Made by a program: the position numbers and the translations under genes
Notes under the pieces: model-generated
The model's database searches: none
What the model saw: only the letters and a program-made list of their open reading frames with translations
What the model was told of the DNA's origin: nothing
Shown here: one piece after another, positions 7,928 to 35,378 of the stretch
How positions within the stretch are numbered: position 1 is the stretch's first letter
Layout: each line of letters begins with the position of its first letter
Assembly (NCBI GenBank): GCA_034120015.1
Contig: JAXEIF010000005.1
Coordinates: forward strand, 7,467-71,466
DNA length: 64,000 nt
Source of the DNA: Spirochaetia bacterium
GTDB lineage: Bacteria > Spirochaetota > Spirochaetia > JAFGXN01
Direction: 5' to 3'

Positions 7928-9598
<1,671 letters not shown>

Positions 9599-18142: not shown

Positions 18143-20404
18143 ATGAAAAAATTTCTAACAGGGGGGATTATTTTTTTTCTCCTCTTCACAGGATGTCCGC
18201 AGCCGGAAACGGATTCGGATATTTTTACCGGCATTAAAGTTGCCGATTTTTTTGTTTTTGCGGAAGGAGATACTTCCGGTTCGGTAACAAAACCGTTCAC
18301 TTTTCAAACGGAAAAAAACGGAATGAAAATGACTGTTAAAGTTCCTTCATCAATGACCGTTACAGGAAATACAATTTCCGTCAACTGGTACAACGTCTAC
18401 TCTCCGACACAAGAAGCTGTTCTGACAGCAACACTCACAAAAGACGGTCAAAGCAAAGCCTTTCCTTTTACGGTCGTCTTAAAACGGACTCTCGGCTCGA
18501 TGCCCGTTTCCGAACTGATTCTCTTTGATGAAAAACTGGATACTATCGATGCCGTTACAAGCAGTTTTACACTCTCGCAGACAACCGGCAAGTACGGAGA
18601 AACAGTGTCATGGAATTTCACCACGGAATCGCCAGATCTTGTTTACGACGAATCGACAGGTCGGGTCTCGGTTACCCTGACAAACGATCGTCAAAGCGCA
18701 ACTGCCGAAGCTGTTTTTACAAAAGAAGGCTTTGAGTCTGTCACAAAGACTTTTGATCTGATCATTTTGACATCAAGCGAAGGCTATTCATGGACACCCG
18801 ATTCCTTAACCGACTATATTACCCTCGGTAACAGCGGAAAAGATTACCTGTGGCGTATTCGCGATAACTTTACCCTAAAAACATCATTCGATGCCGAATC
18901 CGGTCACGGCGCGGGAACCGTTACATGGACATCTTCCGATGACGCCGCCATTTCCGTTAACGGCAGTACGGCAACCGTTACCCGCGGTTTGGACAGCCAA
19001 AAGGTAACTCTGACAGCAACATTTCAGGAAACAGATTCCGAGAAAAAATCAAAAGATCTTACAATTGATGTTCTTGTCATGGAAACAATTCCGGCAACTC
19101 TGACCGTTGACGGAAAAACCTATAAACTGGTCTATTTTGACGCTTTCGACAATCAAGCCATTCTGGAAGCCAACTGGGATATAGGCAATCCGGGACACAA
19201 TGCGCCGGAAATCGGCAACAACAATCTCGACCCGACCTACTTCAAAGCTCCTGACGGACAGTTCCACGGATACGCCGATGAATGGCAAAAACAACCGACA
19301 TGGTCACCGAAAGCCACTTACATCGAAGACGGAAAAGCACGTCTGCTGGCTAAATACGACACGGAAGCCCAAATCGGCGTTGCCGGAGCACTTCACTCCA
19401 AACGGCTTTTCCCTCACGGCGTTTTTCACGCCAGATGGACTCAGAAACGTGACAGCGATTCCCACTGGGACGCTTACTGGCTCGACACCAATCAGCCCTT
19501 CTCCAAAGCCTACGGCGAAAAACTCCTCAATCTCCCGAAAGCCCTTCGCAAACAGGTGGCAGAGTCATCCCGCGGTGAGGGGTTCTTCGATAACAAAGCT
19601 TCAAACATTCAGCACGGAAATACTGCTGTATCGAATCCGATTCTCTATCAGTCTCAATACACTCTAAAAACAGACAGCTCTATACCCGACTGGGGATTTA
19701 CCGCTGCAAAACGGGTAGACAAAATCGGACGATGGTACAACGGCGAGCAGCGCTACGAACTGGACGCTTACGAGTGGGTCAACGGTACCGGACAGAATAA
19801 CGTGATCCACACCTGGCACTGGATGAGAGGTTTCCCGGGAAACCAAACAGGTTCTCTGAGTGGCGTAGACAAAAAGTGGTATGTCGGAGACGTTGCACGC
19901 AACCAGGGGAAAGTAGGCGGATACTCCACTACCTATTCGGCAGCCGTCAATAAAACACCCTCTTTTACTCTCACAGCGCTGTACAATGACAGCAAAATTG
20001 CTTTTTACTATAACGCTCACGGTGAAAATAATTTTTCTTCTCCCAAATATTCCCGCTCCAAACAGACCGGAGATATGTTTGACCCCAACATAACGGAAGA
20101 AGATAATAGACAACCGTGGCCGAACGACGAGTTTAATCCCGTTCAGGTGAAATTTACGGTTGAACCGGGGCAGTGGGACGATAATTTTTATCAAATTACA
20201 ACAGCTTTCCGAAATAACCCTGAAAATTACGATGCTATGGATATCGAATACTTCGCCTACTACGCAGCGGAAGACGATATGCTCAATCCGAACATCGGAG
20301 ACGAAAACAGCGGTGTTCCTTTAACGGCGATTACCGATATGGATAATGTCACAGAATTCGCTGAAACACAAGCCAAACTGACAAAGGAATGGGTACAGAA
20401 ATGA
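18143..20404 (+). CDS. Surface lipoprotein with three N-terminal Ig-like repeats and a C-terminal GH16-like (concanavalin-fold glycoside hydrolase) domain
   Basis: Lipoprotein signal 'FLLFTGC'. Three repeats of about 90 aa are each predicted by the sequence to bind nothing recognisable but share an ending pattern (…FPFTVVL / …FDLIIL / …TIDVLV). The C-terminal domain has 'WDIGNPG', 'HSKRLFPHGVF', 'HWDAYWLDTNQPFSKAYGEK' (compare GH16 'WPAFWML') and 'YELDAYEW' (ExDxxE catalytic motif). Confidence 0.65.
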   Translation: MKKFLTGGIIFFLLFTGCPQPETDSDIFTGIKVADFFVFAEGDTSGSVTKPFTFQTEKNGMKMTVKVPSSMTVTGNTISVNWYNVYSPTQEAVLTATLTKDGQSKAFPFTVVLKRTLGSMPVSELILFDEKLDTIDAVTSSFTLSQTTGKYGETVSWNFTTESPDLVYDESTGRVSVTLTNDRQSATAEAVFTKEGFESVTKTFDLIILTSSEGYSWTPDSLTDYITLGNSGKDYLWRIRDNFTLKTSFDAESGHGAGTVTWTSSDDAAISVNGSTATVTRGLDSQKVTLTATFQETDSEKKSKDLTIDVLVMETIPATLTVDGKTYKLVYFDAFDNQAILEANWDIGNPGHNAPEIGNNNLDPTYFKAPDGQFHGYADEWQKQPTWSPKATYIEDGKARLLAKYDTEAQIGVAGALHSKRLFPHGVFHARWTQKRDSDSHWDAYWLDTNQPFSKAYGEKLLNLPKALRKQVAESSRGEGFFDNKASNIQHGNTAVSNPILYQSQYTLKTDSSIPDWGFTAAKRVDKIGRWYNGEQRYELDAYEWVNGTGQNNVIHTWHWMRGFPGNQTGSLSGVDKKWYVGDVARNQGKVGGYSTTYSAAVNKTPSFTLTALYNDSKIAFYYNAHGENNFSSPKYSRSKQTGDMFDPNITEEDNRQPWPNDEFNPVQVKFTVEPGQWDDNFYQITTAFRNNPENYDAMDIEYFAYYAAEDDMLNPNIGDENSGVPLTAITDMDNVTEFAETQAKLTKEWVQK

Positions 20405-21969
20405 AATTTTACAGAACTGTTTTAACATCAATGGGAATGGGGGCAGCGGCTTTGGCCGTTGCCGGCTGTCCCGAAGAACGCAAACCGATTTATCCCGACC
20501 AACTGACAATGCCGGGAACCGGAAACGACCAAAAGGCGGTCAAAACCGCATCCGAATACGGTATCAGCGAAAAGCCGAACGTTATTTTTATTCTTCTTGA
20601 CGATGCCGGCCACGGCGATATCAGCTGTTACGGGCAGAAGAATTTTCAAACGCCCAATATTGACAGTCTGGCAAAGAACGGTATCCGCTTTGTCAACAAT
20701 TACGCCGGTGCCCCGGTCAGTGCCTCATCCCGCTGTGCACTGTTTACCGGTAAGACGACCGGACACAGTGCCATTCGCGGTAATCTCGAACTGGGCGCCG
20801 GAGTCGGGTTGGATCCCGCAACCGTCACCAAAGAAGGCCAGGAAGGACTCCCCGATTCGGAATATACTCTGGCACAGTTATTCAAAGAGAACGGCTACAA
20901 CACCGCCCTGGTCGGAAAATGGGGTATGGGAATGCCGATAAACAACAGCTCTCCACTGAACAAAGGATTTGATCATTATTACGGACACCTTTGCCAGCGG
21001 ATGGCGCATTCCTACTTTCCCGATCACGTTTGGGAAGACGATTCAAAGGTTGAATTCAAGGACAACACAGGGATGACCGGAAATGTGTGGCTTCACGATG
21101 AATTCGAAAAGAAAACAGCCGAATATCTGACAACATACCTCGCGGAGTCCACACCGTTTTTTCTGTTTTGCACCTACACCATTCCGCACGGCGCTCTGCA
21201 AATCCCGGACGGGAAACTCAACGATGCGAATTATCATCCTTACACAACCGCCGAATGGTGGAGTAAAGCTTCGGATGATATGAAACGGTATGCGATTATG
21301 ATGCACCGCGTGGATCTGACTGTCGGAAAGATTATCGATCAGGTTGAGGCAGCAGGAAAACTGAACAATACCCTGATTCTTTTTTCCAGTGACAACGGAC
21401 CTGCCGACGAATACGGCGCCGATCCGAATTTTTTTGAAAGCGCCGGACGTTTCGGCAATGAACGGCTTCGCGGCATTAAACGCGCTTTGTACGAAGGAGG
21501 TGTTAAAGTTCCGTTTATCGCATCATGGAACGGAACAATCAAACCTGCCGAAAGCCTGCATATCATGGCCGGGTATGACATTATGGCGACGATGGCTCAA
21601 ATATTGGGAACCGATTTATCGCAAAAAACAAAAACCGACGGACTCTCTTTTCTTCCGACATTAATGGGCGATACCGTCAACCAGAAAGAACACCCCTATC
21701 TTTATTGGGAATTTGTCGGCAATACGGCTTCGGAAGGCGGCGGCCCCCGGCAGGGAGTCCGCAGCGGTGACTGGAAAGCGATTTTGAACTTCGGAGTAAC
21801 AACTTCGGCCAAAGCAGGCGAAGGGAATATCGAACTTTACCATTTGGGCGATGATCCCGGAGAGGCTGATAATGTCGCCACTCTTTACCCCAATATTATT
21901 GCGTCGATGAAACAAATTATGATAAACGCTCATGACAACAATGATAAATTCCCTCAAATAAAAAAATAA
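20401..21969 (+). CDS. Sulfatase-family (alkaline-phosphatase superfamily) lipoprotein with a non-canonical active-site motif
   Basis: Lipobox 'LAVAGC'. 'NVIFILLDDAGHGDISCYGQ…TPNIDSLAKNGIRFVNNYAGAPVSASSRCALFTGK' aligns with the sulfatase signature, but C-x-P-x-R is replaced by S-A-S-S-R. A start at 20401 gives an ATGA overlap with the upstream stop; the ORF track starts at 20389. Confidence 0.8.
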   Translation: MKFYRTVLTSMGMGAAALAVAGCPEERKPIYPDQLTMPGTGNDQKAVKTASEYGISEKPNVIFILLDDAGHGDISCYGQKNFQTPNIDSLAKNGIRFVNNYAGAPVSASSRCALFTGKTTGHSAIRGNLELGAGVGLDPATVTKEGQEGLPDSEYTLAQLFKENGYNTALVGKWGMGMPINNSSPLNKGFDHYYGHLCQRMAHSYFPDHVWEDDSKVEFKDNTGMTGNVWLHDEFEKKTAEYLTTYLAESTPFFLFCTYTIPHGALQIPDGKLNDANYHPYTTAEWWSKASDDMKRYAIMMHRVDLTVGKIIDQVEAAGKLNNTLILFSSDNGPADEYGADPNFFESAGRFGNERLRGIKRALYEGGVKVPFIASWNGTIKPAESLHIMAGYDIMATMAQILGTDLSQKTKTDGLSFLPTLMGDTVNQKEHPYLYWEFVGNTASEGGGPRQGVRSGDWKAILNFGVTTSAKAGEGNIELYHLGDDPGEADNVATLYPNIIASMKQIMINAHDNNDKFPQIKK

Positions 21970-21984
21970 TAAAAGGAGAAATCT

Positions 21985-23571
21985 ATGAAAAAGAAATCAT
22001 TACTGTTTTTAGGCGTATTAACCGCTTCGGCTCTGTTTTTCGGATGTCCCGGACCGGAAGAATCGGCAGACGCCACCTCTCTGACATTGACGACACCGCA
22101 GGCCTACCTGGCCCCCGGACTGACAATGACCGTCACGGCTACTGTCAAACCGGAAGGATTTCCGGTCACCTTTTCCTCCGACAATATGGGCGTTGCCTCC
22201 GTCAGCAATAAAGGGGTTGTATCGGGCGTTTCCGAAGGAACGGCAACAGTTACAGCCGCTGCCGGAACAAAAAAAGCGAGCGCAACCGTGACCGTTGTGC
22301 CCTATACGTCCGTTTCGATAGCGCCTCTTCCTGAAGACGATTACACTATTCCCAATACAACGTCAAAACAGCTGACACTGAAGTGGGAACCTTCCGGTGT
22401 TTCAGTTGCTCCCGAGATTATCAAATGGGTCAGTTCCAATCCGGACGCCTTCCCGGTCGATAAAAACGGACTGGTCACCTCGAACAGCGATACGGAATCA
22501 GCTGAAATTCATGCCGAAATTTACGACGGACTGATGAAAACAAAAGCCGTTACCGTCAGCGGGGACGAAGCGCCTCCCGTTCCGGCACCGGTTGTCGAAA
22601 ATTTGCGGGCATTCACCGGTGATGCCCGTTACACCATTTACTGGGATGCAGTAGAAAATGCAACGGAATATAAACTTTATTGCACAACTGACACCGCCAA
22701 ACCGGCAGAAGCAACTGCCACATTAACAGAAACATCTCATCATGTTACATCTGCAACAAATGGAGAAACAATCAACATTTGGGTCGAAGCAGTCGTAGCG
22801 GGCACCGTTCAGATCAATGACCCGGCACACACAACTGTAACGGTCGGATACAACGGAAACAGCAATGCATCGATTACAGTCGATTCGCAAACCTACACAC
22901 TCGACCGCGAAGTCGATTTCCGCGAAGGAACTTTCGAACAGAAATGGCCGACATCGACAATACTTTACAGTGTCGATTCAGAGACAGGTATTTTAACGCA
23001 AAAAGGCGGCAGCGGTTCTTCCGGTAGCAGTTATATGGATGAGGCTGACGGAGCCGGAGCCAATTCACGCTTAATCTGGACTCCGCCCGCAGATGTGCTT
23101 CCGATCTCCGAATACAGTTATATCGAGGTTGAACTGAAAACTTCACAGCCGTCGGGCACCCCTGGATTCTGGGTCGTTCTGAACCACAACAATATCATCA
23201 GTTATGAACTTGTTCATTATAACAACAATAATCCGAACGGATGGTTTCTGTCTTACGGTGGTGAATGGCGCAGTAACGGAAAAACACAAAAATTTCATGC
23301 CGGATCAGGAATTTCACTCCCTTCTCAAGGCGATATTCATAAATTCGGAATTTTATTTCCCGATAAAACACCTTCAAAAATACGAATCTATTCAGATCGA
23401 ACAACGGCCTACGTTAATAAGAATAGTTTTGACGGCGGAAATGCTGCGTCGGCACCTCAATCATGGACAGAGAATATACCGACCTATTTCGAATTTATCT
23501 TCGGAGCAGCCGACTGTCCGAACTATACGGCAGAAATTTCCAAAATCCGCTACTATAAAGCGTCCAACTAA
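21985..23571 (+). CDS. Surface lipoprotein with Big_2-like Ig domains and a C-terminal beta-sandwich domain of unknown function
   Basis: Lipobox 'LFFGC'. Big_2-like segments are present (…GVVSGVSEGTATVTAAAGTKKASATVTV…). No catalytic motif was recognised. Confidence 0.55.
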   Translation: MKKKSLLFLGVLTASALFFGCPGPEESADATSLTLTTPQAYLAPGLTMTVTATVKPEGFPVTFSSDNMGVASVSNKGVVSGVSEGTATVTAAAGTKKASATVTVVPYTSVSIAPLPEDDYTIPNTTSKQLTLKWEPSGVSVAPEIIKWVSSNPDAFPVDKNGLVTSNSDTESAEIHAEIYDGLMKTKAVTVSGDEAPPVPAPVVENLRAFTGDARYTIYWDAVENATEYKLYCTTDTAKPAEATATLTETSHHVTSATNGETINIWVEAVVAGTVQINDPAHTTVTVGYNGNSNASITVDSQTYTLDREVDFREGTFEQKWPTSTILYSVDSETGILTQKGGSGSSGSSYMDEADGAGANSRLIWTPPADVLPISEYSYIEVELKTSQPSGTPGFWVVLNHNNIISYELVHYNNNNPNGWFLSYGGEWRSNGKTQKFHAGSGISLPSQGDIHKFGILFPDKTPSKIRIYSDRTTAYVNKNSFDGGNAASAPQSWTENIPTYFEFIFGAADCPNYTAEISKIRYYKASN

Positions 23572-23590
23572 TCGAAACAATCTCCAAACG

Positions 23591-23617
23591 ACCCCGCTTC
23601 GGCGGGGTTTTTCTTTT
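23591..23617 (+). terminator. Rho-independent terminator after the Big_2 lipoprotein gene
   Basis: GC stem 'ccccgc-ttcg-gcgggg' followed by 'tttttctttt'. Confidence 0.8.
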
Positions 23618-23671
23618 AAACACATTCCCTAAAACGGCTGAATCGGTTATAATAGCGTAAAGGAAACAAAT

Positions 23672-24517
23672 TTGATCAGTGCAGACTCCTATCATCGTCT
23701 TCAAATGAAGAAAAAAATATCAAAAGGCATTCTTTTAACGGACGGAACACAGGATGTCCTTTTACCGGCCTCCGACTCCCGTCCTCTTTTTCAAAAAGGA
23801 AAGGAAATCGAGGTTTTCGTCTACAACAATCGGGATTCGCTTCGGGCAACCGAAAAACACCCTAACGGTCTTCGCGGCGAGTTTGCCGCTCTCACAATTA
23901 AAAGTATTGAGAAATTCGGTATTTTTGCCGACTGGGGGATTCCGAAAGACCTGTTTATTCCCAACCGCAATATCGATCACGATGAATATGAAAAAGGGGA
24001 AAAAATTATCGTACGTCTGATTCCCAATTATGACGATGACACAACGATCGGCGACTGCTACATTGAAGATTATCTTGATAAGGCAGACGGCGCTTACGAA
24101 CCGAATCAGGAAGTGGAAATCCTGATTTACCGCATAACAAAACTGGGAGCATCCGTGATCATTAATAACCGTCACGCAGGACTGCTGTATCAAACGCATG
24201 CAGGCAAAGCTTTTCATGTCGGCGACAGGCGCCGTGCCTACATCAAAAAAGTTCGTGATGACGGAAAAATCGACTTAAGCCTGTTTCCCCAGGGATACCG
24301 GGAATCTCGCTCGGCAGCCGAAAAAACAATACTGGAAACTCTGGAAAAAGCCGGCGGACGTCTTCCGCTCTCGGATGCCAGCACTCCTGCGGAAATCGAA
24401 TCGCTCCTCGGGATGAGTAAAGCGCTGTTCAAACGCACTATCGGCAGCCTTTACAAGAATAAACAGATTTTTATCGGAAAACTGGAAATCCGTTTAAGGG
24501 ACTTTCATCAACGGTAA
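23672..24517 (+). CDS. CvfB/YitL-family S1-domain RNA-binding protein. An alternative start exists at the internal MKKKISKG.
   Basis: 281 aa with tandem S1-like OB folds (…GKEIEVFVYNNRDSLRATEKHP…GEKIIVRLIPNYDDD…), like conserved virulence factor B proteins. Confidence 0.6.
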   Translation: MISADSYHRLQMKKKISKGILLTDGTQDVLLPASDSRPLFQKGKEIEVFVYNNRDSLRATEKHPNGLRGEFAALTIKSIEKFGIFADWGIPKDLFIPNRNIDHDEYEKGEKIIVRLIPNYDDDTTIGDCYIEDYLDKADGAYEPNQEVEILIYRITKLGASVIINNRHAGLLYQTHAGKAFHVGDRRRAYIKKVRDDGKIDLSLFPQGYRESRSAAEKTILETLEKAGGRLPLSDASTPAEIESLLGMSKALFKRTIGSLYKNKQIFIGKLEIRLRDFHQR

Positions 24518-24591
24518 AAATAACCGTTTTCCCCCAATTCATCTGCTACGAAGATGTACCGCATCATCAGGCAATAAACGGTAAACGATAC

Positions 24592-24616: not shown

Positions 24617-24635
24617 TAAAGACGTAGGTAAAGTG

Positions 24636-25961
24636 TTACGGAGCAGTTGTCGCAAAATCTGTCCGACCGCCATACCATTTCGCTGAATCAGACTCTAAAG
24701 CATAGAATGCGAAATAATCGGCATACATTACATCATACGGTTTGATAGCTTTGGTTCCGTCCGGCATATACTCTTTTAAAAACAGTTCATGATCATTATT
24801 CCACTGTCCGATTTCGGTACTGTATTTAATCTGGATCGGATTAAAGGCATCATTGGCCAATTTTGCTTTCTCATTGGCTTTTGACAGCCAACTTTTCACC
24901 GCTGTATCGGCTTTTCGTACCAATTTCTGCTGACCGTCAAACCACATAATAAACCCTTCGGGAGCCCAGAACATGGCCAATGTGAAGTACGTTTTTTCTT
25001 TTAATTTAGGCTGAATCGACATATTTCCGACCGCACCGTAGCCGTCATTGGCCCGCAAGCCGTCAATGGTTTTCATATCGTGTACAGTTCCGAACTTATC
25101 CGATGAAGGCGGCGTACCTCCTTTTTTCAGTTCTTCGATACCCGGATAACCGCCATACCAGTCCCAGCAGTGTTCGGCCTGCCACTGCGATCCGGTTGCA
25201 ACCTCAACCCATTCATACATGTCGTACTCGTAAACCTGCTGACCGTTGAACCCCTGCCACTCCTGGGGCGCCCGATTATTTTCCGAATATTTATCGGTTT
25301 TCTGCTTTTTATCGGCTATCTTTAACGAAAGCCCCATCTCCGATAACATGTTATCCGTCGGTGTAAACAGCTTCTTTTCACCGTATGCGCGACTGAACGG
25401 ATTGTTACTTTCCGCCCACCAGGCGTCCCAGTGAGTGGCTGTTTCTTTATCCATCAGAATCCGGGTTTCAAAATAGCCGTAAGGGAACTGCCTGCGGGAA
25501 TGAATCGCTCCCGACAAAGCATATCCGTCACGGACCTTCTTGCCGTCTTTATCGTAAACCGGAAGATTCTGATCATACATCGTTCCGATGACCAAAAATC
25601 CGTCTTTCAAGGTGACGGCTTTCGGCGACCAATACGGCTGTTTAAACCGGTCATTTTTATACCCCATTAATCCGTCATCAAATTTAACTTCTTCGGGTTT
25701 CTCGTAGCCCATGTTTCCGACTTCCGGTTTGTTATATCCGGGATTTCCGATATCCCAATCTTCCTGAAACGACTGCCAATCGGTAAACTCATCCGAATAC
25801 GTACGGGTCAGCTTCAAATTTTTGTATTTCACATCCAAAGCCGATGCATCAATCGTCACTTCCTTTAATGAGGATTTTGCCTGTAAAGAAGAAATCTCTC
25901 CCGAAGGACAAGCCGTCAGCGCAGCCGCTGCCAGCGGCAACAATAAGAATTTTTTCTTCAT
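24636..25961 (-). CDS. GH16-like glycoside hydrolase lipoprotein (short paralog)
   Basis: 441 aa with lipobox 'ALTAC' and the motifs 'WDIGNPGYNKPEVGNMG', 'KQPYWSPKAVTLKDG', 'HSRRQFPYGYF', 'HWDAWWAESNNPFSRAYGEK' and 'YEYDMYEWV'. Confidence 0.65.
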   Translation of the reverse strand: MKKKFLLLPLAAAALTACPSGEISSLQAKSSLKEVTIDASALDVKYKNLKLTRTYSDEFTDWQSFQEDWDIGNPGYNKPEVGNMGYEKPEEVKFDDGLMGYKNDRFKQPYWSPKAVTLKDGFLVIGTMYDQNLPVYDKDGKKVRDGYALSGAIHSRRQFPYGYFETRILMDKETATHWDAWWAESNNPFSRAYGEKKLFTPTDNMLSEMGLSLKIADKKQKTDKYSENNRAPQEWQGFNGQQVYEYDMYEWVEVATGSQWQAEHCWDWYGGYPGIEELKKGGTPPSSDKFGTVHDMKTIDGLRANDGYGAVGNMSIQPKLKEKTYFTLAMFWAPEGFIMWFDGQQKLVRKADTAVKSWLSKANEKAKLANDAFNPIQIKYSTEIGQWNNDHELFLKEYMPDGTKAIKPYDVMYADYFAFYALESDSAKWYGGRTDFATTAP

Positions 25962-26074: not shown

Positions 26075-28477
26075 TTAATCATTCACATCATTCCCGATTG
26101 CCGGGTACTTACCGCCTGTATCCCATGCATAGAAGGCAAAAAATTCGGCTACCGTTGAATCGGGCTTCTCTTCGGTCAATGTGTCTCTGGCATCATAAAT
26201 CAAATCGTGATTATTATTCCATTGTCCCAGTTCGGACGAATATTTCACCTGAATCGGAGCCCATTCATCGGCAGGGAACGGCGTCGGACACTCGGCATTA
26301 CCGAAACAACCTTTATAAAAAACTTCACGGGCAGACGAAGTCGGAATATCGTTAAAATTCCAATTCCAATCGGACGGGAAATTATACATTCGAACCAGTC
26401 CGTCGGAAGTCACCAGCATTGCCAAATAAAACCAATCCTGACTGCGAGCCTGTCCGGCATCCTGATAAGAATGATAAATCCGCCCTACAGCTCCTTCCTT
26501 ATCATTTTTTCTGAAATCATTTGTTATATAATAATTTCCGTCACTACCGCCGCCGTAAGTCGCCCCCTGACTCATACGGTCGTCCCACCCCGGGTATCCG
26601 CCGTACCACGACCACATATGCGTAACCATCCACTGTGTATTATCGTTTGAAACCCACTCATACATATCATATTCGTAGACCTGTTGCCCGTTCAATCCGC
26701 GGGCGGCTGCATTGGAATGCAAATTATTCTCATTGTTGAATTTGTATTTTGCAATTTGATTTATCCCCGCAGCGGCTCCCGGCGGCATAAACAGCGTTTT
26801 GTTGCCGTATTCTTTCGAAAACGGATTATTGCTTTCCGCCCACCAGGCATCCCAATGGCTGGCGTTTTTACTGTCCCGTCCGGAGAAATCATGACGGATT
26901 TTAGTAACAAACAATCCACTCGGAAACTGCCGCTTCGAGTGTACGGCTCCCGCCAATCCGTATCCGGATTCCTGATTCGCTCCCTTATTTGGGATAAAGC
27001 TATCGCCGGCCGGTTCGGTCGTACTGTCTGTTGTTGTCGAAATATTTTTGTTGGGGATCGTTTTATCGTAAAAAACATCAATCCAAAGGCAACCGTCCTT
27101 AATACGAACGGCCTTAGGAGACCAGTACGGCTGTTTATAGCGGTCATTTTCGTACCCCCGAATGCCGTCCGGTCCGAACGTTTTCGGACCGCTCAATTCA
27201 AGTCCCATATTACCGATCTCAGGACGCTGAATTCCGGGGTTTCCGATATCCCAATCGGCCTCCAGTGTCTCCATAGAGTCAAACGGATCGTAATATGTCA
27301 GACTGAGAACCTTTCCTTCGACAGCGACTTTTGCGGGAATCATGCCGGGTGCGGGCGGCGTAACGGTTTCAATGATATCTCCGTTTTCGTCGAACTCAAT
27401 CACTTCGATTGATTCGTCTAAATAGTAAAATGCAACATGATCGACAGTAACGGTAACAGACTGATTTGCATTGTTATCTTCCGTTCCGAAATAGAGCCAA
27501 TAAGTTTCTTGAGAAGGAATCTCGAAATTATCGGGATTTGTAACCGAATAGATCGAAGTAGCGTCAAAAAAAGACATCAATAGATTTTTTTCAAAAATCA
27601 TCCCGTAAGTATGATACGTATTCGGTTCAACTGAAAAACCTTTTGGACTTCGACCTCCTTTCAATCTGGCTTTGATCGAAGCATCCCAGTTGTTAAAAAA
27701 TTCATTGGCCCATCCGCGTTTTTGATTTTGATTAATTGGATTTGTATCAGTTTGAGCAGCATCCACTGTTCCCAAACCGCAACCGATAGCCGTATTTAAT
27801 CCGTTATTACTGAGAGATGCGGTTATTTCCACATATCCTAAAGTTTTGCCGGCCTCTACTCCCGGATAAAGTGCCTCGGCAATAGTTAACGGATAGCTGA
27901 CGCCGCCCGTCACTGCCGCATTACCGGGCGTTTTAAAAGTCAGCTCTCCCTTTTCTGAGTCTACTTCAAAAACGGCGTCATTGGGACAATCTTGATGTTG
28001 CGTCCATTCTTTTCCCACACCGGTTTTCGAAAAATCAAACAGTGAAGCAATACGATAGCCTTTTCCGTTACGATGAACCACTTCCTGAACACCTTCCGGA
28101 ACCTCGACCGAGCACGTTGCCTGTGCTTTCGAATTTGCTTTACTGATTGCCTTCAACTCAACTGTTCCGGCAGTATTGCCGGCAACAAGAACAGTCACAT
28201 TGCCTTTTTGAACCACATCCACAATCTCTTTGTCGGACGATTGCAGGATAAATCCCTTTTCTGCGGCGGTCGTGTTTACAGTAACCGCAATGCGGGAAGC
28301 AGTATTTTTCCATAACGTCATTTTGCTCTGACCGAAAGAAATTTCAACCGCAACATCCTTATTACCGCCACTTCCGCCTCCTTGATCCACGGACGGACCG
28401 GGAGGTGGACATCCTACCGAAAATAATACCGCAAGAATAAAAAGCAAACCTTTCTTCATAAACTTTCTCCTCTCCAT
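26075..28477 (-). CDS. GH16-like glycoside hydrolase lipoprotein with an N-terminal Ig-like/Big domain and a carbohydrate-binding-like module (tandem duplicate 1)
   Basis: 800 aa with lipobox 'FSVGC' and a Gly-rich linker. It has the same C-terminal motif set (WDIGNPGIQRPEIGNMG, HSKRQFPSGLF, HWDAWWAESNNPFSKEYG, YEYDMYEWV). The N-terminal 350 aa are highly similar to those of the 28597 gene. Confidence 0.65.
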   Translation of the reverse strand: MERRKFMKKGLLFILAVLFSVGCPPPGPSVDQGGGSGGNKDVAVEISFGQSKMTLWKNTASRIAVTVNTTAAEKGFILQSSDKEIVDVVQKGNVTVLVAGNTAGTVELKAISKANSKAQATCSVEVPEGVQEVVHRNGKGYRIASLFDFSKTGVGKEWTQHQDCPNDAVFEVDSEKGELTFKTPGNAAVTGGVSYPLTIAEALYPGVEAGKTLGYVEITASLSNNGLNTAIGCGLGTVDAAQTDTNPINQNQKRGWANEFFNNWDASIKARLKGGRSPKGFSVEPNTYHTYGMIFEKNLLMSFFDATSIYSVTNPDNFEIPSQETYWLYFGTEDNNANQSVTVTVDHVAFYYLDESIEVIEFDENGDIIETVTPPAPGMIPAKVAVEGKVLSLTYYDPFDSMETLEADWDIGNPGIQRPEIGNMGLELSGPKTFGPDGIRGYENDRYKQPYWSPKAVRIKDGCLWIDVFYDKTIPNKNISTTTDSTTEPAGDSFIPNKGANQESGYGLAGAVHSKRQFPSGLFVTKIRHDFSGRDSKNASHWDAWWAESNNPFSKEYGNKTLFMPPGAAAGINQIAKYKFNNENNLHSNAAARGLNGQQVYEYDMYEWVSNDNTQWMVTHMWSWYGGYPGWDDRMSQGATYGGGSDGNYYITNDFRKNDKEGAVGRIYHSYQDAGQARSQDWFYLAMLVTSDGLVRMYNFPSDWNWNFNDIPTSSAREVFYKGCFGNAECPTPFPADEWAPIQVKYSSELGQWNNNHDLIYDARDTLTEEKPDSTVAEFFAFYAWDTGGKYPAIGNDVND

Positions 28478-28572: not shown

Positions 28573-28596
28573 CATACAAGTATGTTCAGAATATAT

Positions 28597-30912
28597 TTAT
28601 TCAGCTACATCAGTCTCCACCGATGTATACTTGCCCGTATCCCAGGCATAGAACGCAAAGAATTCGGCATGCATGATATCGGGATTCTCCGGGGTCAGCC
28701 GATCTTTTTCATTATAAATAAGGTTATGCATATTCTGCCAGTCTCCCAGCTCGGATGAATATTTGACCTGAATCGGCGCATAGGTGTCGGCATTCATGAA
28801 CGGTGCCGTCACACCGGAGTTTCCGAAAGCACCTGTCGTTTTGTTCATCTGACTCTTTCGTGTTCCGGACTGGGAAAAATCCCAATTCCAGGTTTTCGGG
28901 AAGTTCCACATCACCACCTTTTCGGGGGTGACCAGCATCGCCAGATAAAACCAGTCTCCCGAAGAAGCCTGTCCGCCATCCAAATAGTTATTGCTGAATG
29001 TTCCGGAAATTCCGTTATTGTCTCTTCCTCTCAGATTATCCGAAGTCGACCAGTAATTGTTATCGCCCCCGCGGGTCTCATAGCGGTCTTCCCAACCCGG
29101 GTATCCGCCGTACCAGGCCCAGGAATGAAGCACCTGCCACTGACTCTGATTGTTACCGACCCATTCATACATATCGTACTCATATACCTGCTGACCGTTT
29201 AACCCGCGATCGGAGGTCGGAACATCGGTATACTCATCGGAAGTCGTTATATTTTTTGCCCGACGGATTCTGCTTTCCCCTCCTTCCGGCATAAACAGCT
29301 CTTTTTCGCCGTAAGCACGGCTGAACGGGTTGTTGCTTTCGGCCCACCAGGCATCCCAATGTGCATTGGTTTTTGCTGAACGATTTCCCCATGAATGTTT
29401 AATTTTGGTGATAAACAGTCCGCTCGGAAACTGTCGCTTGGAATGGATAGCGCCGGCCAAGCCGTATCCTGTTGTATCATATGTGCCACCACTTCCGGGG
29501 ACCCATCCTTCCTGACCATTGTTCACATTTTTATTCTGAATCGTCTTATCAAAGAAGACTTTTATTAACAATTCTCCGTTTTGAATATCGACCGCTTTCG
29601 GCGACCAGTAAGGCTGCTTGTAACGGTCACCGGAATAACCTTTAATCCCGTCATCAAAAGTCACCAATGTCGGAGATGCGATTCCCTCATTTCCGATTTC
29701 GGGACGTTCAATCCCCGGATTACCGATATCCCAGTTTTCCTTCAAAACATCCATACTGTCAAACGAGTCGTAGTGAGTCAGTTTTAAGATTTTTCCGTCA
29801 ACCGCAATCCGTGCCGGAATCATACCGGGGGCAGGAGGCGTAACCGTTTCGATAATGTTACCTTCCTCATCAACCTGAATCACTTCCATCGAGTCATCAT
29901 AGTAATAGAAGGCAACCGTATCCACAGAAACCGTAACAGTCGTGCTGCTGTTACCTGTTTTTCCGAAATAAAGATAATAAACACTCCCGTCATTGGGAAT
30001 CGCATAGTCTCCCGCTGCTTTACTGTTGTTTTCAATTCCGTCCGTATAGGCTGTCAAATTGGATCCGTCGAGAAAGGAAATCCCGAAAGCATGGTCTTTT
30101 CCTGTTTCAATCGTATAGGCATTTCCCCTACTGTTTGCCAGACGGGATTTCCAAACAGAATCACTGGTATCAATGAATTCATTCGCCCAACCGCGGGAAT
30201 TGTTATCTCCGGCCATATCCGCACTGCCGAGTCCCATTGCAACCCCCGTATCGGCACCGGCGCTCACCTGAGCAATCACTTCGGCATAAGCAACGTTCTT
30301 GCCAGACAGTGCCAGTCCGGCAACAAGACCTTCCTGCAGATCAAGCGAATAATTGGCTTCGGTGGAATCGGCGCCGGAAATAGTCGTAATCTTTAAAGAT
30401 CCGTCGCTGAATTCGCGGGAAAATTTGGCCTCAGTTCCGTCTTTATATGTCCATGTTCCTTTCAAACCTGTTGTTTCAAAATCAAACAGAGAAAGCAGAC
30501 GAAAGCCTTTTCCTCCACGATGTACAACTTCCTGAATGCCGTCAGGTACAGTAACCGTACAGGTTGCTTTTGCCGACTTATCCGCTTTACTGACAGCCGT
30601 AAGAGTCACCGTACCGGGCAGATTCCTGGCTGTAATCACAGGATTTCCATCCGTCTGTAAAGAAATTTTAACAATATCCTCATTCGAAGAGGTTAGCGTA
30701 TATCCTTTTTCCGATGCTTTGGTTACAACATTGACAGCCAACCGCGAAGAAGTATTCTTCCATAGTATCATTTCAGCCTGACTGAAAGAAATTTGAACTT
30801 CTGGAGCTGTGCTGTTCCCGCCACCATTCCCGTCTCCTCCCGGTGTAGGTGTAGGTGGAGGACATCCCACTGTCAGCAATGTTGCCAAAAATAAAAAACA
30901 AAGCTTTTTCAT
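28597..30912 (-). CDS. GH16-like glycoside hydrolase lipoprotein (tandem duplicate 2)
   Basis: 771 aa with lipobox 'LTVGC', a Pro/Gly linker, and the motifs WDIGNPGIERPEIGNEG, HSKRQFPSGLF, HWDAWWAESNNPFSRAYGEK and YEYDMYEWV. Confidence 0.65.
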   Translation of the reverse strand: MKKLCFLFLATLLTVGCPPPTPTPGGDGNGGGNSTAPEVQISFSQAEMILWKNTSSRLAVNVVTKASEKGYTLTSSNEDIVKISLQTDGNPVITARNLPGTVTLTAVSKADKSAKATCTVTVPDGIQEVVHRGGKGFRLLSLFDFETTGLKGTWTYKDGTEAKFSREFSDGSLKITTISGADSTEANYSLDLQEGLVAGLALSGKNVAYAEVIAQVSAGADTGVAMGLGSADMAGDNNSRGWANEFIDTSDSVWKSRLANSRGNAYTIETGKDHAFGISFLDGSNLTAYTDGIENNSKAAGDYAIPNDGSVYYLYFGKTGNSSTTVTVSVDTVAFYYYDDSMEVIQVDEEGNIIETVTPPAPGMIPARIAVDGKILKLTHYDSFDSMDVLKENWDIGNPGIERPEIGNEGIASPTLVTFDDGIKGYSGDRYKQPYWSPKAVDIQNGELLIKVFFDKTIQNKNVNNGQEGWVPGSGGTYDTTGYGLAGAIHSKRQFPSGLFITKIKHSWGNRSAKTNAHWDAWWAESNNPFSRAYGEKELFMPEGGESRIRRAKNITTSDEYTDVPTSDRGLNGQQVYEYDMYEWVGNNQSQWQVLHSWAWYGGYPGWEDRYETRGGDNNYWSTSDNLRGRDNNGISGTFSNNYLDGGQASSGDWFYLAMLVTPEKVVMWNFPKTWNWDFSQSGTRKSQMNKTTGAFGNSGVTAPFMNADTYAPIQVKYSSELGDWQNMHNLIYNEKDRLTPENPDIMHAEFFAFYAWDTGKYTSVETDVAE

Positions 30913-31068
30913 ACAATTAATCTCCTTTTATTTAAATTATATTAACATTATAAAAGAAGTTTTCGCCGTTTGCAAACAAAAAAAAATTTTTATTTTCCAA
31001 ATCTCATTTTTCGCACATGTGAAATTTAATACTTGTATTTTACAATAGCAACTATTAAAATACATTTT

Positions 31069-32934
31069 ATGAAAATACGTACATTATTTTTAATTTCATC
31101 ACTGCTTTTATCGTCGTGCCTGTCCGTCGACGTTCAGGAGTCTGTTTCCCGCACCGACGATACGGACTATCTTCCGCCGATTGATCTGACGGCAGCCGAA
31201 TCGGCACCACGGGCGCTGATCCCTTTTCCGCGTCAAACGACATGGGGTACCGGAGAATGGATTCTCGAACGATGCACCGTGACCCGCAAAATCGAAACAC
31301 TATCGTTCAGTTCCTCTCCCGAAGCCTATTTACTGACCGTTGCCGACGGCCGCATCGAAATCAAAGCCAACGGGGAAAAAGGGCTTCGATACGCGGATTT
31401 GACCCTGAATCAGCTGACCGAAAACGGCCGCAAGCCGGTGCCGGCCTGCACTATCCGCGACTACCCGGCCTTCTCCGTCCGCGGTTTTCACCACGATACC
31501 GGAAGGAACTTTCAAAGCATCGCCTCTCTGAAAGAACAAATCCGCCGTCTGGCCGCTTACAAACTCAACACATTCCACTGGCACATTACCGACAATCCGG
31601 GCTGGCGGGTCGAATGCAAAAAATACCCTGTTTTAAACGATCCGAAAACAATGTACCGCAGTACCGAATTCTATACTTACGACGAAATCCGCGATCTGAT
31701 TTCTTTCAGCAACGATCTCGGCGTTCAGGTGATTGTGGAACTGGACATGCCCGGACACAGCAAATTCTTTCCGAAAGCGTTCGGTTTTTCGATGGGATCG
31801 CAAAAAGGAACGCAAATCTGTCTCGATCTGATTCAGGAATTCTGCGATGAAATTCCGGTCGAAATGGCACCGGTTATTCACGTCGGAGCCGACGAAGTCC
31901 GTGCTCCCGTTATCGACGAATTTATGCCGTTGGTAGAAGCCAAACTGAAAGAAAACGGACGTACAGGTATGGTCTGGAATCCGGGAATCAAATCCTCTCC
32001 CGATGTCATCGAGCACACCTGGTTTGAAAAGGCTCAACAGCCCGGTTACCGCAACATCGATTCGAGCGGGCTTTACACCAATACTCTCGATTTTTTCAAT
32101 GTGATTCAGGCCATTTATTTCAAACAACCGTGCGAAGCGCCTACCGGTTCCGATACGGAACTGGGAGCGATTGTCTGTAACTGGAACGATGTAGCGATAT
32201 CCGACGAAAAAGATGTTTTGCTGAACAACCCGGTTTACAGTTCGGGAATCACGGCAGCCGAGATTTTTTGGAACGGAAATCCGACCGGCAGCCAGCGTTA
32301 CAAACAGATCCTGCCTCCGTCCGGTTCGGACGCGCTTCGCGCTTTTGCCGAGTTCGAAAACCGTCTGATAGCCCATAAGAATCTTTACTTCGGAGATGTC
32401 GGTGCCGGGTTTATTTACCCCAGACAGTCCGATCAGGTTTGGCAGCTGACAGGGCCAGACGGTACGACGGTCGAAGCCAGAGGTGTTTCGCTGCTTTTAA
32501 GCGATTATTTTCCGAATGCCCGAAAACGGCAGGCAGCGGTCTGCCGTTTGGAAATCGAAAGCGAAACCGACCGCGAAGTGCTGCTTCATGCCGGGTTTGA
32601 TGTACCCGGCCGTGCACACCGTTTTTACGGCGGTGTTCCCCCGAAAGGAAAATGGGATCGCTACGGCAGTACGATTACTTTAAACGGGAATCCCGTCGAG
32701 CCGCCCCGGTGGCAACAGCCGGGCGCCTACCGGCACGATATTGTCCAGACATGGGATCACCCGGTACAGGAAGTCCCCTGGACCGCCGAAGAACTCTACT
32801 GGCGCCGCGAACCGGTGCGGGTTCAACTGAAAAAAGGTGTCAATGTGATTGAAGTCAGGGCTGTCAAAAACTCACCCAAACAGATTTGGATGACAGCTCT
32901 CTGGCTTGAAGATGTTGGGGAATCGGTAAAATGA
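31069..32934 (+). CDS. GH20 beta-N-acetylhexosaminidase, lipoprotein
   Basis: 'RGFHHDTGRNFQSIASLKEQIRRLAAYKLNTFHWHITDNPGWRVE' and the catalytic-region motif 'HVGADEV' (H-x-G-G-D-E type). Lipobox 'LLSSC' if the start is at the MKIRT codon at 31069. Confidence 0.85.
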   Translation: MKIRTLFLISSLLLSSCLSVDVQESVSRTDDTDYLPPIDLTAAESAPRALIPFPRQTTWGTGEWILERCTVTRKIETLSFSSSPEAYLLTVADGRIEIKANGEKGLRYADLTLNQLTENGRKPVPACTIRDYPAFSVRGFHHDTGRNFQSIASLKEQIRRLAAYKLNTFHWHITDNPGWRVECKKYPVLNDPKTMYRSTEFYTYDEIRDLISFSNDLGVQVIVELDMPGHSKFFPKAFGFSMGSQKGTQICLDLIQEFCDEIPVEMAPVIHVGADEVRAPVIDEFMPLVEAKLKENGRTGMVWNPGIKSSPDVIEHTWFEKAQQPGYRNIDSSGLYTNTLDFFNVIQAIYFKQPCEAPTGSDTELGAIVCNWNDVAISDEKDVLLNNPVYSSGITAAEIFWNGNPTGSQRYKQILPPSGSDALRAFAEFENRLIAHKNLYFGDVGAGFIYPRQSDQVWQLTGPDGTTVEARGVSLLLSDYFPNARKRQAAVCRLEIESETDREVLLHAGFDVPGRAHRFYGGVPPKGKWDRYGSTITLNGNPVEPPRWQQPGAYRHDIVQTWDHPVQEVPWTAEELYWRREPVRVQLKKGVNVIEVRAVKNSPKQIWMTALWLEDVGESVK

Positions 32935-35378
32935 CAGACAGATCCCGCATTCTTTTCAGTCTGCTGATATTTCTCTCATCTCTTCCGACAGATGCATCGG
33001 CAGCCGAACCGGGAAACAGAGTTCTTTTCTACACTTCGCCCGCAGAAAACTGGGAACAGGAATCTCTGCCGATCGGTAACGGCTGGATGGGCGCCTCCCT
33101 CTTCGGAGGTATCGAAAACGAACGTATTGTTCTGAACGAAAAAACATTATGGGAAGGCGGTCCGGGAGAATGGGACGGATACGGGAAACCCGATCCGAAT
33201 AAAGGCGCTTTTGCCCTGCCGGAAATTCGTAAAGCGGTTGAAGAAGGAAAATACGGAGAGGCGCACCGTCTTGCCGAAAAATATCTGACCGGCAATGGCA
33301 CGGGAAAAGGCGCTTATCAGCCGCTCGGAACGCTGGATATCCGTTTTCCGGGAATTAAACGGCAGAAAGGCTCTTATATCCGCAAACTCGATACCGGAAA
33401 CGCGGTACACACCGTTTCTTTCTCGCAAAACGGGGTCGAATATACGCGGAACGCTTTTGCCTCTTACCCGGATAAAAGCATCGTCTTTTCGTTCTCTGCG
33501 GACCGTCCGCAATCGGTTGCTTTCAACCTGCAGTGGGAAACCGTCAACGAAACAAAAAACTATTACGACACCTATAAAAACGAATTCGTCTGCCTCAACC
33601 CGAATGTCCGCACAGGCCGCACCGAAACAGTCGCCGTCGAACGTCTCGGCGACGATACGGCCAAAATGACGGTCGAAGGTATTTTAAACAACAACGGCAT
33701 GAAATATGCCGCCGTCATTTACATAAAAGCCGTCAACGGCACGGTCGGTACCGACGGAAAATCGGCGGCCGTCCGCGGAGCCGATCGGGCCGTTCTCTTT
33801 TTTGCCGCCGCCACCGATTACGCCAACGAATATCCCCGCTACACAAGCGGCCGGAATCCGTTGCCGGTCGCCGACGCCTTTGCCCGCGAAGCGTTTGCGA
33901 AAGGCGAAACCCGGGTTTACCGAAATCACATCCGCGATTATACCGGACTGTTTGAACGCACCGCACTGCGTTTGACGGACAGCGATGAAACGTTGACGGA
34001 TGTTCCGACCGACAAACGGCTGAAACAGTTCCGCAGAAACCGCGACCCGATGTTTTTGGAACTGCTTTTCAACTACGGAAAGTATCTGCTGATTGCCTCC
34101 TCCCGCGAAGGATCGCTTCCGCTCAACCTGCAGGGCGTCTGGAACGCATATACGGCACCTCCCTGGAGCAGCGATTACCATACCAATATCAATCTTCAGA
34201 TGGCTTACTGGCCGGCGGAACCGCTTCATTTGGGAGAAATTCACAAACCGCTGCTCGACTACATTCCGACACTGGTTCAACCGGGAGAAATCACCGCCCG
34301 TCACTATTACGGAACCGGCGGATGGGTCTGCCACACCAGCAATAACCCTTTCGGAGAAACGCAGCCCGGATGGGGAATTGTCTGGGGACATTTCCCGGGC
34401 GCGGCCGCCTGGCTCTGCCGTCATTTGTGGGATCACTACCTTTATACGCAGGATACCGCTTTTCTGAAAGAGGTCTATCCGACGGTCAAAGGAGCCGCAC
34501 AATTTTGGGCCGATTGGCTGACAACAGATAAAAACGGCAATCTGATCTCCTGCCCCTCTTATTCGCCGGAACACGGTACGATTTCCGCCGGTGCAACAAT
34601 GGATTTTGAAATCGCTTTCGAAATTCTGAACACCGCAATTACCGCTTCCGAAATCCTCGGTACAGACAATACCGAACGGGAAATATGGCGGAGCATTGTC
34701 AGCCGGATTCCGCCGCTGAAAATCGGACGATGGGGACAGCTTCAGGAATGGACCGAAGATATCGACTCAAAAACAGATAAACACCGCCATATCTCGCATC
34801 TCTATGCTCTGCATCCGGGAACACAAATCTCTCCGATTACGACACCCGAGACGGCGAAAGCTGCCGCCGTCACACTGAAAGCCCGCGGTGACAAAGCCAC
34901 CGGATGGTCGATGGCGTGGAAAATGAATTTTTATGCCCGTTTGGGAGACGGAGATCATTCGTATAAGCTGCTGCGGAATTTCGTACGGTTCACCGAACGA
35001 TCCGGAGTAGCTCTTTCGGGAGGAGGCTTTTACCGGAATTTGTGGGATGCCCATCCGCCGTTTCAGATCGACGGGAATTTCGGCATTGTTTCCGCTTTTA
35101 TCGAATGGGTTTTGCAAAGTCACAACGGAGAAATACATCTTCTGCCTGCTCTTCCTTCCGCAATCAAAAACGGCCGGTTCGACGGTTTTAAAGCCGCCGG
35201 CGGGTTCACGGTTTCCGCTTCCTGGAAAAAAGGAAAAATGAACGAAGCCGTTATCCGATCCGATGCCGGGAAACCGTTAACGGTTCGCTACGCCGGCAAA
35301 ACGGTCGATATCGATCTGAAACGGGGCGAATCGGTTCGCCTCAACGGCAATCTGGAGATTCTTTCTTCGGACCGATAA
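32931..35378 (+). CDS. GH95-family alpha-L-fucosidase
   Basis: 815 aa. The N-terminus 'ESLPIGNGWMGASLFGGIENERIVLNEKTLWEGGP' and the 'PLNLQGVWN' motif are characteristic of GH95. Its start is coupled to the GH20 stop by an ATGA overlap. Confidence 0.85.
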   Translation: MTDRSRILFSLLIFLSSLPTDASAAEPGNRVLFYTSPAENWEQESLPIGNGWMGASLFGGIENERIVLNEKTLWEGGPGEWDGYGKPDPNKGAFALPEIRKAVEEGKYGEAHRLAEKYLTGNGTGKGAYQPLGTLDIRFPGIKRQKGSYIRKLDTGNAVHTVSFSQNGVEYTRNAFASYPDKSIVFSFSADRPQSVAFNLQWETVNETKNYYDTYKNEFVCLNPNVRTGRTETVAVERLGDDTAKMTVEGILNNNGMKYAAVIYIKAVNGTVGTDGKSAAVRGADRAVLFFAAATDYANEYPRYTSGRNPLPVADAFAREAFAKGETRVYRNHIRDYTGLFERTALRLTDSDETLTDVPTDKRLKQFRRNRDPMFLELLFNYGKYLLIASSREGSLPLNLQGVWNAYTAPPWSSDYHTNINLQMAYWPAEPLHLGEIHKPLLDYIPTLVQPGEITARHYYGTGGWVCHTSNNPFGETQPGWGIVWGHFPGAAAWLCRHLWDHYLYTQDTAFLKEVYPTVKGAAQFWADWLTTDKNGNLISCPSYSPEHGTISAGATMDFEIAFEILNTAITASEILGTDNTEREIWRSIVSRIPPLKIGRWGQLQEWTEDIDSKTDKHRHISHLYALHPGTQISPITTPETAKAAAVTLKARGDKATGWSMAWKMNFYARLGDGDHSYKLLRNFVRFTERSGVALSGGGFYRNLWDAHPPFQIDGNFGIVSAFIEWVLQSHNGEIHLLPALPSAIKNGRFDGFKAAGGFTVSASWKKGKMNEAVIRSDAGKPLTVRYAGKTVDIDLKRGESVRLNGNLEILSSDR

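Follow-up and report, generated by a model that had tools for sequence, protein, structure and literature searches.

Background

Lipoproteins of glycoside hydrolase family 16 (GH16) are endo-acting initiators of mucin breakdown and cleave keratan sulfate, too (PMC7419316). In Akkermansia, GH16 O-glycanases are lipoproteins, and the glycan genes are not organised in polysaccharide utilisation loci (PULs) (PMC7419316). The S1_20 sulfatases BT1636 and BT1622 were described as 3S-Gal and 3S-Gal/GalNAc sulfatases (Gal, galactose; GalNAc, N-acetylgalactosamine), and the structures 7ANB, 7ANA, 7AN1 and 7ALL were deposited by Luis et al. (bioRxiv 10.1101/2020.11.20.392076). For spirochaetes, no relevant description of mucin or GH16 loci was found in the searchable literature. 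Here, we analyse a stretch of 64,000 nt from a Spirochaetia bacterium (assembly GCA_034120015.1, contig JAXEIF010000005.1, positions 7,467 to 71,466), in the following called the window, whose region 18143-35378 contains nine genes according to open reading frame (ORF) listing and Pfam scans. We assign a probability of roughly 0.55 to the reading that this region is a chromosomal cluster of secreted, mostly lipid-anchored enzymes for sulfated, fucosylated glycans of Gal and N-acetylhexosamine (HexNAc). Its core is formed by four paralogous lipoproteins, GH16L-A to GH16L-D, which are homologous to GH16. In addition, the region encodes a sulfatase, a Big_2 lipoprotein, a GH20 and a GH95 enzyme, and a GH29 enzyme is encoded further downstream. 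For these five, the family calls in a preliminary description of this DNA agree with strong Pfam scores.

A diverged GH16 domain in four lipoproteins

GH16L-A (18143-20404, plus strand, 753 aa), GH16L-B (24636-25961, minus strand, 441 aa), GH16L-C (26075-28477, minus strand, 800 aa) and GH16L-D (28597-30912, minus strand, 771 aa) have a C-terminal domain of ~410 aa in common that carries the motifs HWDAWW and Y-E-[YL]-D-[MA]-Y-E-W. Identity to the GH16L-B domain amounts to 32% for GH16L-A, 42% for GH16L-C and 44% for GH16L-D. The domains of GH16L-A and GH16L-D are 33% identical over 436 aa (E=7e-53), and GH16L-C and GH16L-D contain DNA segments that are 72-75% identical. GH16L-B, the best conserved protein of the cluster, consists of the diverged GH16 catalytic-type domain alone. 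GH16L-A begins with atrophied Big_2 repeats (aBig_2, 1.6e-14, its sole Pfam match); its catalytic-type domain, in which the second motif reads Y-E-L-D-A-Y-E-W, starts at about residue 316. In GH16L-C, an N-terminal Ig-like region is followed by a concanavalin-like middle domain (~127-377) and the GH16-like domain, and GH16L-D has the same architecture. Homologs of both proteins carry PF02368 at the N-terminus.

Direct family searches, which the preliminary description had proposed as a check, did not yield an HMM (hidden Markov model) assignment to GH16. Neither PF00722 nor any other Pfam family matched the GH16-like domain, be it in the full proteins or as isolated domain, even at E<=10, and NCBIfam returned nothing for it. 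When the family profile was compared with PDB sequences, the sole match was a Big_2 one. Because of insertions of ~150 aa, the GH16L proteins score too low for every current family model.

The link to GH16 is provided by bridging proteins. An exhaustive search with the domain profile against 1.84 billion cluster representatives returned 21 proteins, about 12 of which are family members or fragments. The weak tail comprises nine proteins (E 1e-13 to 4e-4, library-wide), and all but one of these pass the Pfam gathering score of PF00722. An hhalign comparison of the family with the nine bridging proteins gave a probability of 99.9% over 263 columns with E=3e-36, a value that is optimistic because matching the family profile was the criterion for including a protein in the bridging set. 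The PF00722 membership and the PDB matches of this set are independent of that selection. In the alignment, HWDAWW is placed on GHWNAFW and YEYDMYEW on E-x-D-x-x-E. The bridging set in turn matches the GH16_3 laminarinase 2vy0 (1.2e-26) and the O-glycanase 6t2n (2.8e-21), and its EfDifE aligns with EIDIME of 2vy0.

Conservation and predicted structure agree with this register. Across 39 homologs with 31-87% identity, E244, D246, E249, W177 and W181 do not vary, and neither does the entire HWDAWW strand. YEYDMYEW is located on a predicted strand (241-251) preceded by a W-x-A-x-W strand, and the domain has the beta-jelly-roll (concanavalin-like) fold of clan GH-B. Since GH16 is indicated by the fold as well as by profile homology, E-x-D-x-x-E is not a chance motif. 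This means, the GH16L domain is homologous to GH16 and has an intact catalytic triad, and the earlier call of these proteins as GH16-like was right in substance, on the grounds of fold, triad and transitive profile homology. We are highly confident that the GH16L proteins are GH16-derived and catalytically competent; as predicted from their sequences, they would most likely act as retaining endo-glycanases. Alternatively, the domains could have lost their activity and serve as jelly-roll lectins or adhesins of the cell envelope that keep a GH16-like motif. We consider this very improbable. The triad is retained in all 39 homologs, and the assignment to a lectin or DUF family that the preliminary description had allowed for did not occur.

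The PF00722-positive bridging proteins P0072-P0077 carry lipoprotein-type signals, too (...IGC, ...SSC, ...TGC, ...ISC), and display the family-specific blocks YW..DAV, GYFEAR.KM, TTHW and DY..Y. They may represent the less-diverged sister clade.

The sulfatase and the Big_2 lipoprotein

The second gene of the region (20389-21969, plus strand) encodes an S1-family sulfatase lipoprotein of 526 aa (PF00884, 1.3e-47). Its best PDB matches are 7ANA (2.7e-86) and 7AN1 (1.3e-82), and the next subfamily follows at 4e-45. Starting at residue 202, the decapeptide CQRMAHSYFP agrees with the published S1_20 consensus in nine of ten positions, among them those of the Gln and the His, and has Met at position 4. 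Orthologs with 77-80% identity are present in two related loci (L001:13921-15507(-) and L002:12295-13866(-)), and both of them retain CQRMAHSYFP along with the motif S-A-S-S-R, to which we return below. By sequence, the protein is probably an S1_20-like galactose-3-O-sulfatase.

The Big_2 lipoprotein (21985-23571, plus strand, 528 aa) has an N-terminal Big_2 domain (PF02368, 2.6e-11). For its C-terminal ~240 aa (243 aa), no Pfam family was found at E<=10. A relationship of this part to the lectin-like middle domain of the GH16L proteins was considered and rejected (hhalign probability 1.9%). The protein may serve as a glycan-binding accessory protein.

The predicted exo-acting enzymes

The GH20 beta-N-acetylhexosaminidase is encoded at 31033-32934 on the plus strand (633 aa; PF00728 2.6e-34, PF02838 7.6e-08). 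Its likely start is the ATG at 31069, which results in the N-terminus MKIRTLFLISSLLLSSC with a lipobox-like signal. HVGADE at residue 283, originally read as HxGGDE, holds the catalytic D-E pair and is aligned to 'hvggde' of 8bbl, the best PDB match (1.3e-31).

The GH95 enzyme (32931-35378, plus strand, 815 aa; PF22124 1.3e-162) is listed at NCBI as 'glycoside hydrolase family 95 protein' (MDY3938905.1). The LQGVWN motif reported for it is present, at residue 400. Its PDB matches include 4ufc (2.6e-164) and AfcA (2eab, 1.3e-99). In this family, His instead of Thr two residues upstream of the base-activating N-x-N pair marks the fucosidase type. The active-site sequence sdyHtNiN resembles sdfHmNvN of AfcA and dyHnNiN of FucOB and differs from snyTlNiN of BH0842. 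The protein is probably an alpha-1,2-L-fucosidase, as judged from these residues.

A GH29 alpha-L-fucosidase lipoprotein (49622-51115, minus strand; PF01120 1.5e-41) is located outside the cluster proper, 14.2 kb past the end of the region, in agreement with the ~15 kb given before. It matches 4zrx (9.8e-141) and the alpha-1,3/4-fucosidases 3ues/3mo4 (3.3e-112), has a C-terminal F5/8-type-C-like domain and is predicted to belong to the alpha-1,3/4 (GH29-B-like) group. Adjacent to it on the same strand (window 48008-51115, minus), a KDPG/KHG aldolase gene (49036-49617) and a gene for a PfkB-family sugar kinase (48008-49039) follow, which suggests a small catabolic unit for a sugar acid or deoxy-sugar.

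Secretion signals

Lipobox-type signals are found on eight of nine secreted proteins, when GH29 and GH20 (from the ATG at 31069) are counted. The signals end in ...LFTGC (GH16L-A), ...AVAGC (sulfatase), ...FFGC (Big_2 lipoprotein), ...ALTAC (GH16L-B, lipobox LTAC), ...FSVGC (GH16L-C, lipobox SVGC), ...LTVGC (GH16L-D, lipobox TVGC), ...AVAGC (GH29, lipobox VAGC) and LLSSC (GH20). The preliminary description attributed a lipobox ending in GC to every enzyme. This applies to most of them; GH20 and GH16L-B end in LLSSC and LTAC, and GH95 has none. The N-terminus of GH95, MTDRSRILFSLLIFLSSLPTDASA followed by AEPG, is devoid of Cys and resembles a type-I signal peptide with cleavage between ASA and AE. 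Spirochaete lipoproteins may be periplasmic as well, and lipidation does not tell on which side of the outer membrane the proteins are found. The outer-surface location given in the preliminary description is therefore presumed in what follows.

Gene organisation

The genes show an operon-like arrangement in three transcription units. The first comprises GH16L-A, the sulfatase gene and the Big_2 gene. Here, the first two genes overlap by 16 nt, sulfatase and Big_2 genes are separated by 16 nt, and a strong terminator-like hairpin with T-run (23590-23609, plus strand) is located after the Big_2 gene, the last one of the unit. The second unit encodes GH16L-D, -C and -B with gaps of ~115 nt, and another strong terminator-like hairpin (24617-24598, minus strand) is found after GH16L-B. 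The third unit consists of GH20 and GH95, whose genes overlap by 4 nt and are therefore probably co-transcribed; GH20 and GH16L-D are oriented head-to-head. As the totals of promoter- and terminator-like sites were not above shuffled expectation, only few strong hairpins and sites were used. The LysRS gene downstream of the cluster has a promoter-like site scoring 11/12. A search for intergenic repeats and regulatory motifs yielded just paralog-derived coding repeats and chance matches. The three units may be co-regulated.

The first unit is separated from the second by a gene for a CvfB-type S1/winged-helix RNA-binding protein (23672-24517, plus strand, 281 aa; CvfB_WH 2.1e-19, S1_2 1e-14). 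It is of the housekeeping type, breaks up the cluster and probably does not belong to the glycan system. The seven contiguous genes of the preliminary description, whose own list named eight, have thus to be corrected to nine with the CvfB gene in their middle.

The upstream flank is composed of split transketolase genes, a gene for a 268-aa protein without family match and a glyoxalase gene; downstream, genes for class-I LysRS, a lipoprotein and SSB follow. With 46-47%, the GC content of the GH16-like genes is close to the 48% of the upstream flank. It reaches 51-53% over GH95, LysRS and the next gene (window 32000-38000) and drops to 43% at 38-40 kb. Scans of the window for tRNAs and Rfam families gave no match, and no integrase is present. 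A mobile or horizontally acquired island was rejected, as the GH16-like genes lack a compositional anomaly, mobility genes are absent, and flanks and core are kept in relatives. The locus is a variable chromosomal cluster: the term 'island' used before does not fit a housekeeping gene and three units between housekeeping flanks.

Distribution, lineage and synteny

The GH16L family is very rare. Among 5.8 billion proteins, it accounts for 61 clusters (90% identity), and a source name is lacking for every one of them. In 185,579 species genomes, six loci were found in three metagenome-assembled genomes (MAGs), all designated 'uncultured Spirochaetes/Spirochaetaceae', and the JGI metagenomes contributed one locus on one 3.6-kb contig. 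The genomes nearest to the window are MAGs of uncultured Spirochaetes/Spirochaetia. Window proteins MDY3938905.1 and MDY3938906.1 are assigned at NCBI to the MAG 'Spirochaetia bacterium'.

GroEL, encoded at 7928-9571 (minus strand), is 76-79% identical to its nearest named relatives, which come from Spirochaetales/Sphaerochaetaceae MAGs and Bullifex sp. No Treponema was found among the 120 best GroEL matches. On these matches, a treponeme origin was rejected; of the preliminary assignment to a spirochaete or treponeme, the former holds. The window also encodes a methyl-accepting chemotaxis protein (1203-2813, minus strand). Cultured members of the Sphaerochaetaceae/Bullifex group are not known to be motile. 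The lineage is probably a distinct Spirochaetia family.

Partial synteny exists with two further loci, L001 and L002. Both have the flanks of the window, with transketolase, the 268-aa protein (hyp268) and glyoxalase on one side and LysRS, hyp336 and SSB on the other. L001, from the closest MAG, contains GH16L-A (77% identity), sulfatase, Big_2, CvfB, GH16L-B, a D-like gene, an unrelated 674-aa ORF and GH20; GH95 is absent. L002 contains sulfatase, CvfB, GH16L-B, GH20 and GH95 only. The GH20 orthologs in both are 75% identical to that of the window. Accordingly, sulfatase, GH16L-B and GH20 form a retained core between the same housekeeping flanks in three species-level MAGs. The CvfB gene has kept its place in L001, L002 and L007. 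The 674-aa ORF of L001 (5302-7326, plus strand) is situated in the place of GH16L-C, upstream of the 836-aa D-like gene; it has no significant Pfam match and displays weak Ig-like hints.

Relatives of GH16L-D with 50-75% identity are encoded in L001, L003 and L008-L011. In L003 and L009-L011, the D-like gene lies ~6 kb from two tandem GH20 genes. In the Spirochaetia contig L009 (2444-3655) and at the equivalent positions of L010 and L011, the D-like gene adjoins a helicase gene and an array of small genes including an AHH nuclease toxin domain and an Imm74 immunity protein, i.e. a polymorphic-toxin cassette. On its other side, an M16 peptidase gene and the two tandem GH20 genes are located.

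Such variability raises the question whether the neighbourhood is coincidental, that is, whether independent secreted hydrolase genes accumulated at a variable spot without a common substrate or regulation. The CvfB gene lies within the span, the genes fall into no fewer than three transcription units, each terminated separately, and regulator and transporter are lacking. In addition, the gene content differs between MAGs, with GH16L-A, Big_2, GH16L-C and GH16L-D missing from L002 and GH95 from L001, and many family members are solitary elsewhere. Against coincidence, GH16L-A is coupled to the sulfatase, and GH20 to GH95, by reading frames that overlap or nearly abut. Moreover, none of the three syntenic genomes has lost sulfatase, GH16L-B or GH20, and every activity suits one glycan class. 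We consider a coincidental neighbourhood improbable.

Substrate and proposed function

A sulfated, fucosylated Gal/HexNAc glycan is suggested as substrate because an S1_20-like sulfatase is coupled to GH16L-A and the link between GH16L and GH20 recurs, and because GH95 has the fucosidase-type His and an alpha-1,3/4-type GH29 is encoded nearby. Moreover, GH16 lipoproteins that initiate mucin breakdown provide a precedent for a sulfated Gal/HexNAc substrate (PMC7419316). That the cluster targets host-type sulfated glycans has, from the sequences at hand, about an even chance or slightly better. Mucin, as named in the preliminary description, or a keratan-type glycan is a plausible candidate suggested by the gene neighbourhood.

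In the mechanism that we propose, the GH16-like enzymes would perform the endo-cleavage of a glycan of the mucin O-glycan, keratan-sulfate or poly-LacNAc (poly-N-acetyllactosamine) type. Two of the four have Ig-like and lectin-like modules, which might play a binding role. The sulfatase would remove the 3-O-sulfate from galactose, and GH95, GH29 and GH20 could trim fucose and HexNAc in an exo-acting manner. In this scheme, hydrolytic activity, cleaved linkage and substrate are predictions.

The main competing explanation sees in the GH16-like lipoproteins beta-glucanases of the laminarinase or lichenase type, or enzymes for another non-host polysaccharide such as an algal sulfated galactan or microbial exopolysaccharide; the locus would then serve general glycan foraging. 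Laminarinases and carrageenases are among the structural and sequence neighbours of the domain with the same scores as O-glycanases. As these classes cannot be separated by score, specificity cannot be read from homology. Against this explanation, the sulfatase in the operon-like unit is far nearer to the S1_20 mucin sulfatases for 3S-Gal (2.7e-86) than to the carrageenan sulfatases found among its weaker matches (4e-45 and 2e-39). GH20 is linked to GH16L genes in two kinds of loci, and HexNAc occurs neither in beta-glucans nor in carrageenan. In addition, GH95 carries the fucosidase-type His. To our knowledge, laminarinases such as 2vy0 of Pyrococcus furiosus and 3azx of Thermotoga are normally not encoded beside sulfatases, GH20 enzymes or fucosidases, and this window contains no beta-glucosidase or other glucan-related gene. 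A beta-glucanase or foraging locus is therefore doubtful.

Besides the neighbourhood of laminarinases and carrageenases, several further points weigh against a cluster for sulfated, fucosylated Gal/HexNAc glycans. No HMM of Pfam or NCBIfam assigns the central domain to GH16 directly, and it stays below the PF00722 threshold. The full-length GH95 sequence scores best with 4ufc, a Bacteroides ovatus enzyme which we take to come from a plant-glycan locus. The canonical S1 formylglycine signature is C/S-x-P/A-x-R. In the sulfatase, the corresponding site is S-A-S-S-R with Ser at the third position (residues ~112-116, in the context S-A-S-S-R-C-A-L-F-T-G-K); because it is conserved in the orthologs, it is probably functional. 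A gene for a sulfatase maturase (anaerobic sulfatase-maturing enzyme) was not found in the window. The main ORFs of the window (64 kb) include no beta-galactosidase (GH2/35/42), sialidase (GH33), alpha-GalNAc-ase/GH101 or GH89, and neither a sugar ABC transporter nor a dedicated regulator. Since galactosidase, sialidase, alpha-GalNAc-ase, GH89 and transporter, which a complete pathway for mucin would require, are lacking in the window, the enzyme set is incomplete. D-like genes are solitary in L004, L005 and L008, and many family members are solitary in housekeeping contexts. Finally, synteny was drawn from closely related genomes only.

Other lipoprotein genes in the window

Three consecutive lipoprotein genes are located at 54593-61677 on the minus strand and encode proteins of 918, 397 and 999 aa. 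The 918-aa protein combines FN3-like repeats with an FGE-sulfatase (SUMF1-like) domain at its C-terminus (6.6e-26), the 397-aa protein belongs to no family, and the 999-aa protein has a bacterial surface Ig-like domain.

Implications

As Pfam and NCBIfam miss the GH16L domain and its family members are nowhere named, surveys of carbohydrate-active enzymes in spirochaetes could undercount endo-glycanases. If active, the GH16L proteins would widen the GH16 sequence space by a domain that is ~150 aa larger and keeps the triad, and they could be the seed for a new CAZy subfamily. If the substrate is a host-type sulfated glycan, the locus would show how Sphaerochaetaceae-like spirochaetes, which are neither Bacteroidetes nor Akkermansia, gain access to mucus- or keratan-type glycans. 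Glycan analysis would in this case also profit from additional endo-glycanases and from a sulfatase variant. With its conservation, S-A-S-S-R raises the question of what sulfatase-maturing enzymes recognise.

More tentatively, the GH16L paralogs might constitute a new GH16 subfamily or, should CAZy curators find them too divergent, a new clan GH-B family of one lineage of uncultured Spirochaetia, composed of envelope-anchored endo-beta-galactosidases that act on sulfated host glycans together with an S1_20 sulfatase with the non-canonical formylglycine site S-x-S-x-R. This is possible, though we rate its chances clearly below even. If true, it would be the first defined spirochaete machinery for the degradation of host glycans (mucin or keratan) that follows neither the Sus nor the Akkermansia model.

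Comparison with known systems

Like the GH16 subfamily 3 O-glycanases (6t2n, 6t2o, 6t2r), the GH16L domain is a beta-jelly-roll with E-x-D-x-x-E on a bulged catalytic strand. However, structure-based identity to these enzymes amounts to only 16-19%, and the domain comprises ~410 aa compared to ~250. It also differs from the O-glycanases by large insertions on either side of the catalytic strand, by scores below the PF00722 threshold and by its restriction to a few uncultured Spirochaetia.

The sulfatase has its best PDB matches, by ~40 orders of magnitude relative to any other subfamily, with BT1636/BT1622 (Bacteroides thetaiotaomicron S1_20), and it shares with S1_20 the Gln...His galactose-selectivity dyad within CQRMAHSYFP. 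Unlike BT1636/BT1622, it has S-A-S-S-R instead of S/C-x-P/A-x-R and is a spirochaete lipoprotein.

At the level of the locus, a predicted surface endo-glycanase, Ig-like binding-type proteins and exo-acting enzymes are clustered as in Bacteroidetes PULs. In contrast to these, the window lacks a SusC/SusD pair, a hybrid two-component system, an ECF/anti-sigma regulator and a transporter. The preliminary description was correct in that the Pfam scan finds no SusC/D-type protein, and no TonB-dependent receptor either, among the main ORFs of the window. It knew of no such locus in treponemes; the Sus-less organisation as such is not new, as GH16 O-glycanase lipoproteins had already been described in Akkermansia (PMC7419316). 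Similar to the O-glycanases of Bacteroides and Akkermansia, which are often lipoproteins as well, the GH16L proteins are encoded near exo-glycosidases and sulfatases, and in Akkermansia this likewise occurs without a Sus-type PUL. Novelty lies in the branch of enzymes, which current HMM libraries miss, and in its host lineage; the concept of GH16 lipoproteins with a sulfatase, GH20 and fucosidases but without Sus is already established in Akkermansia.

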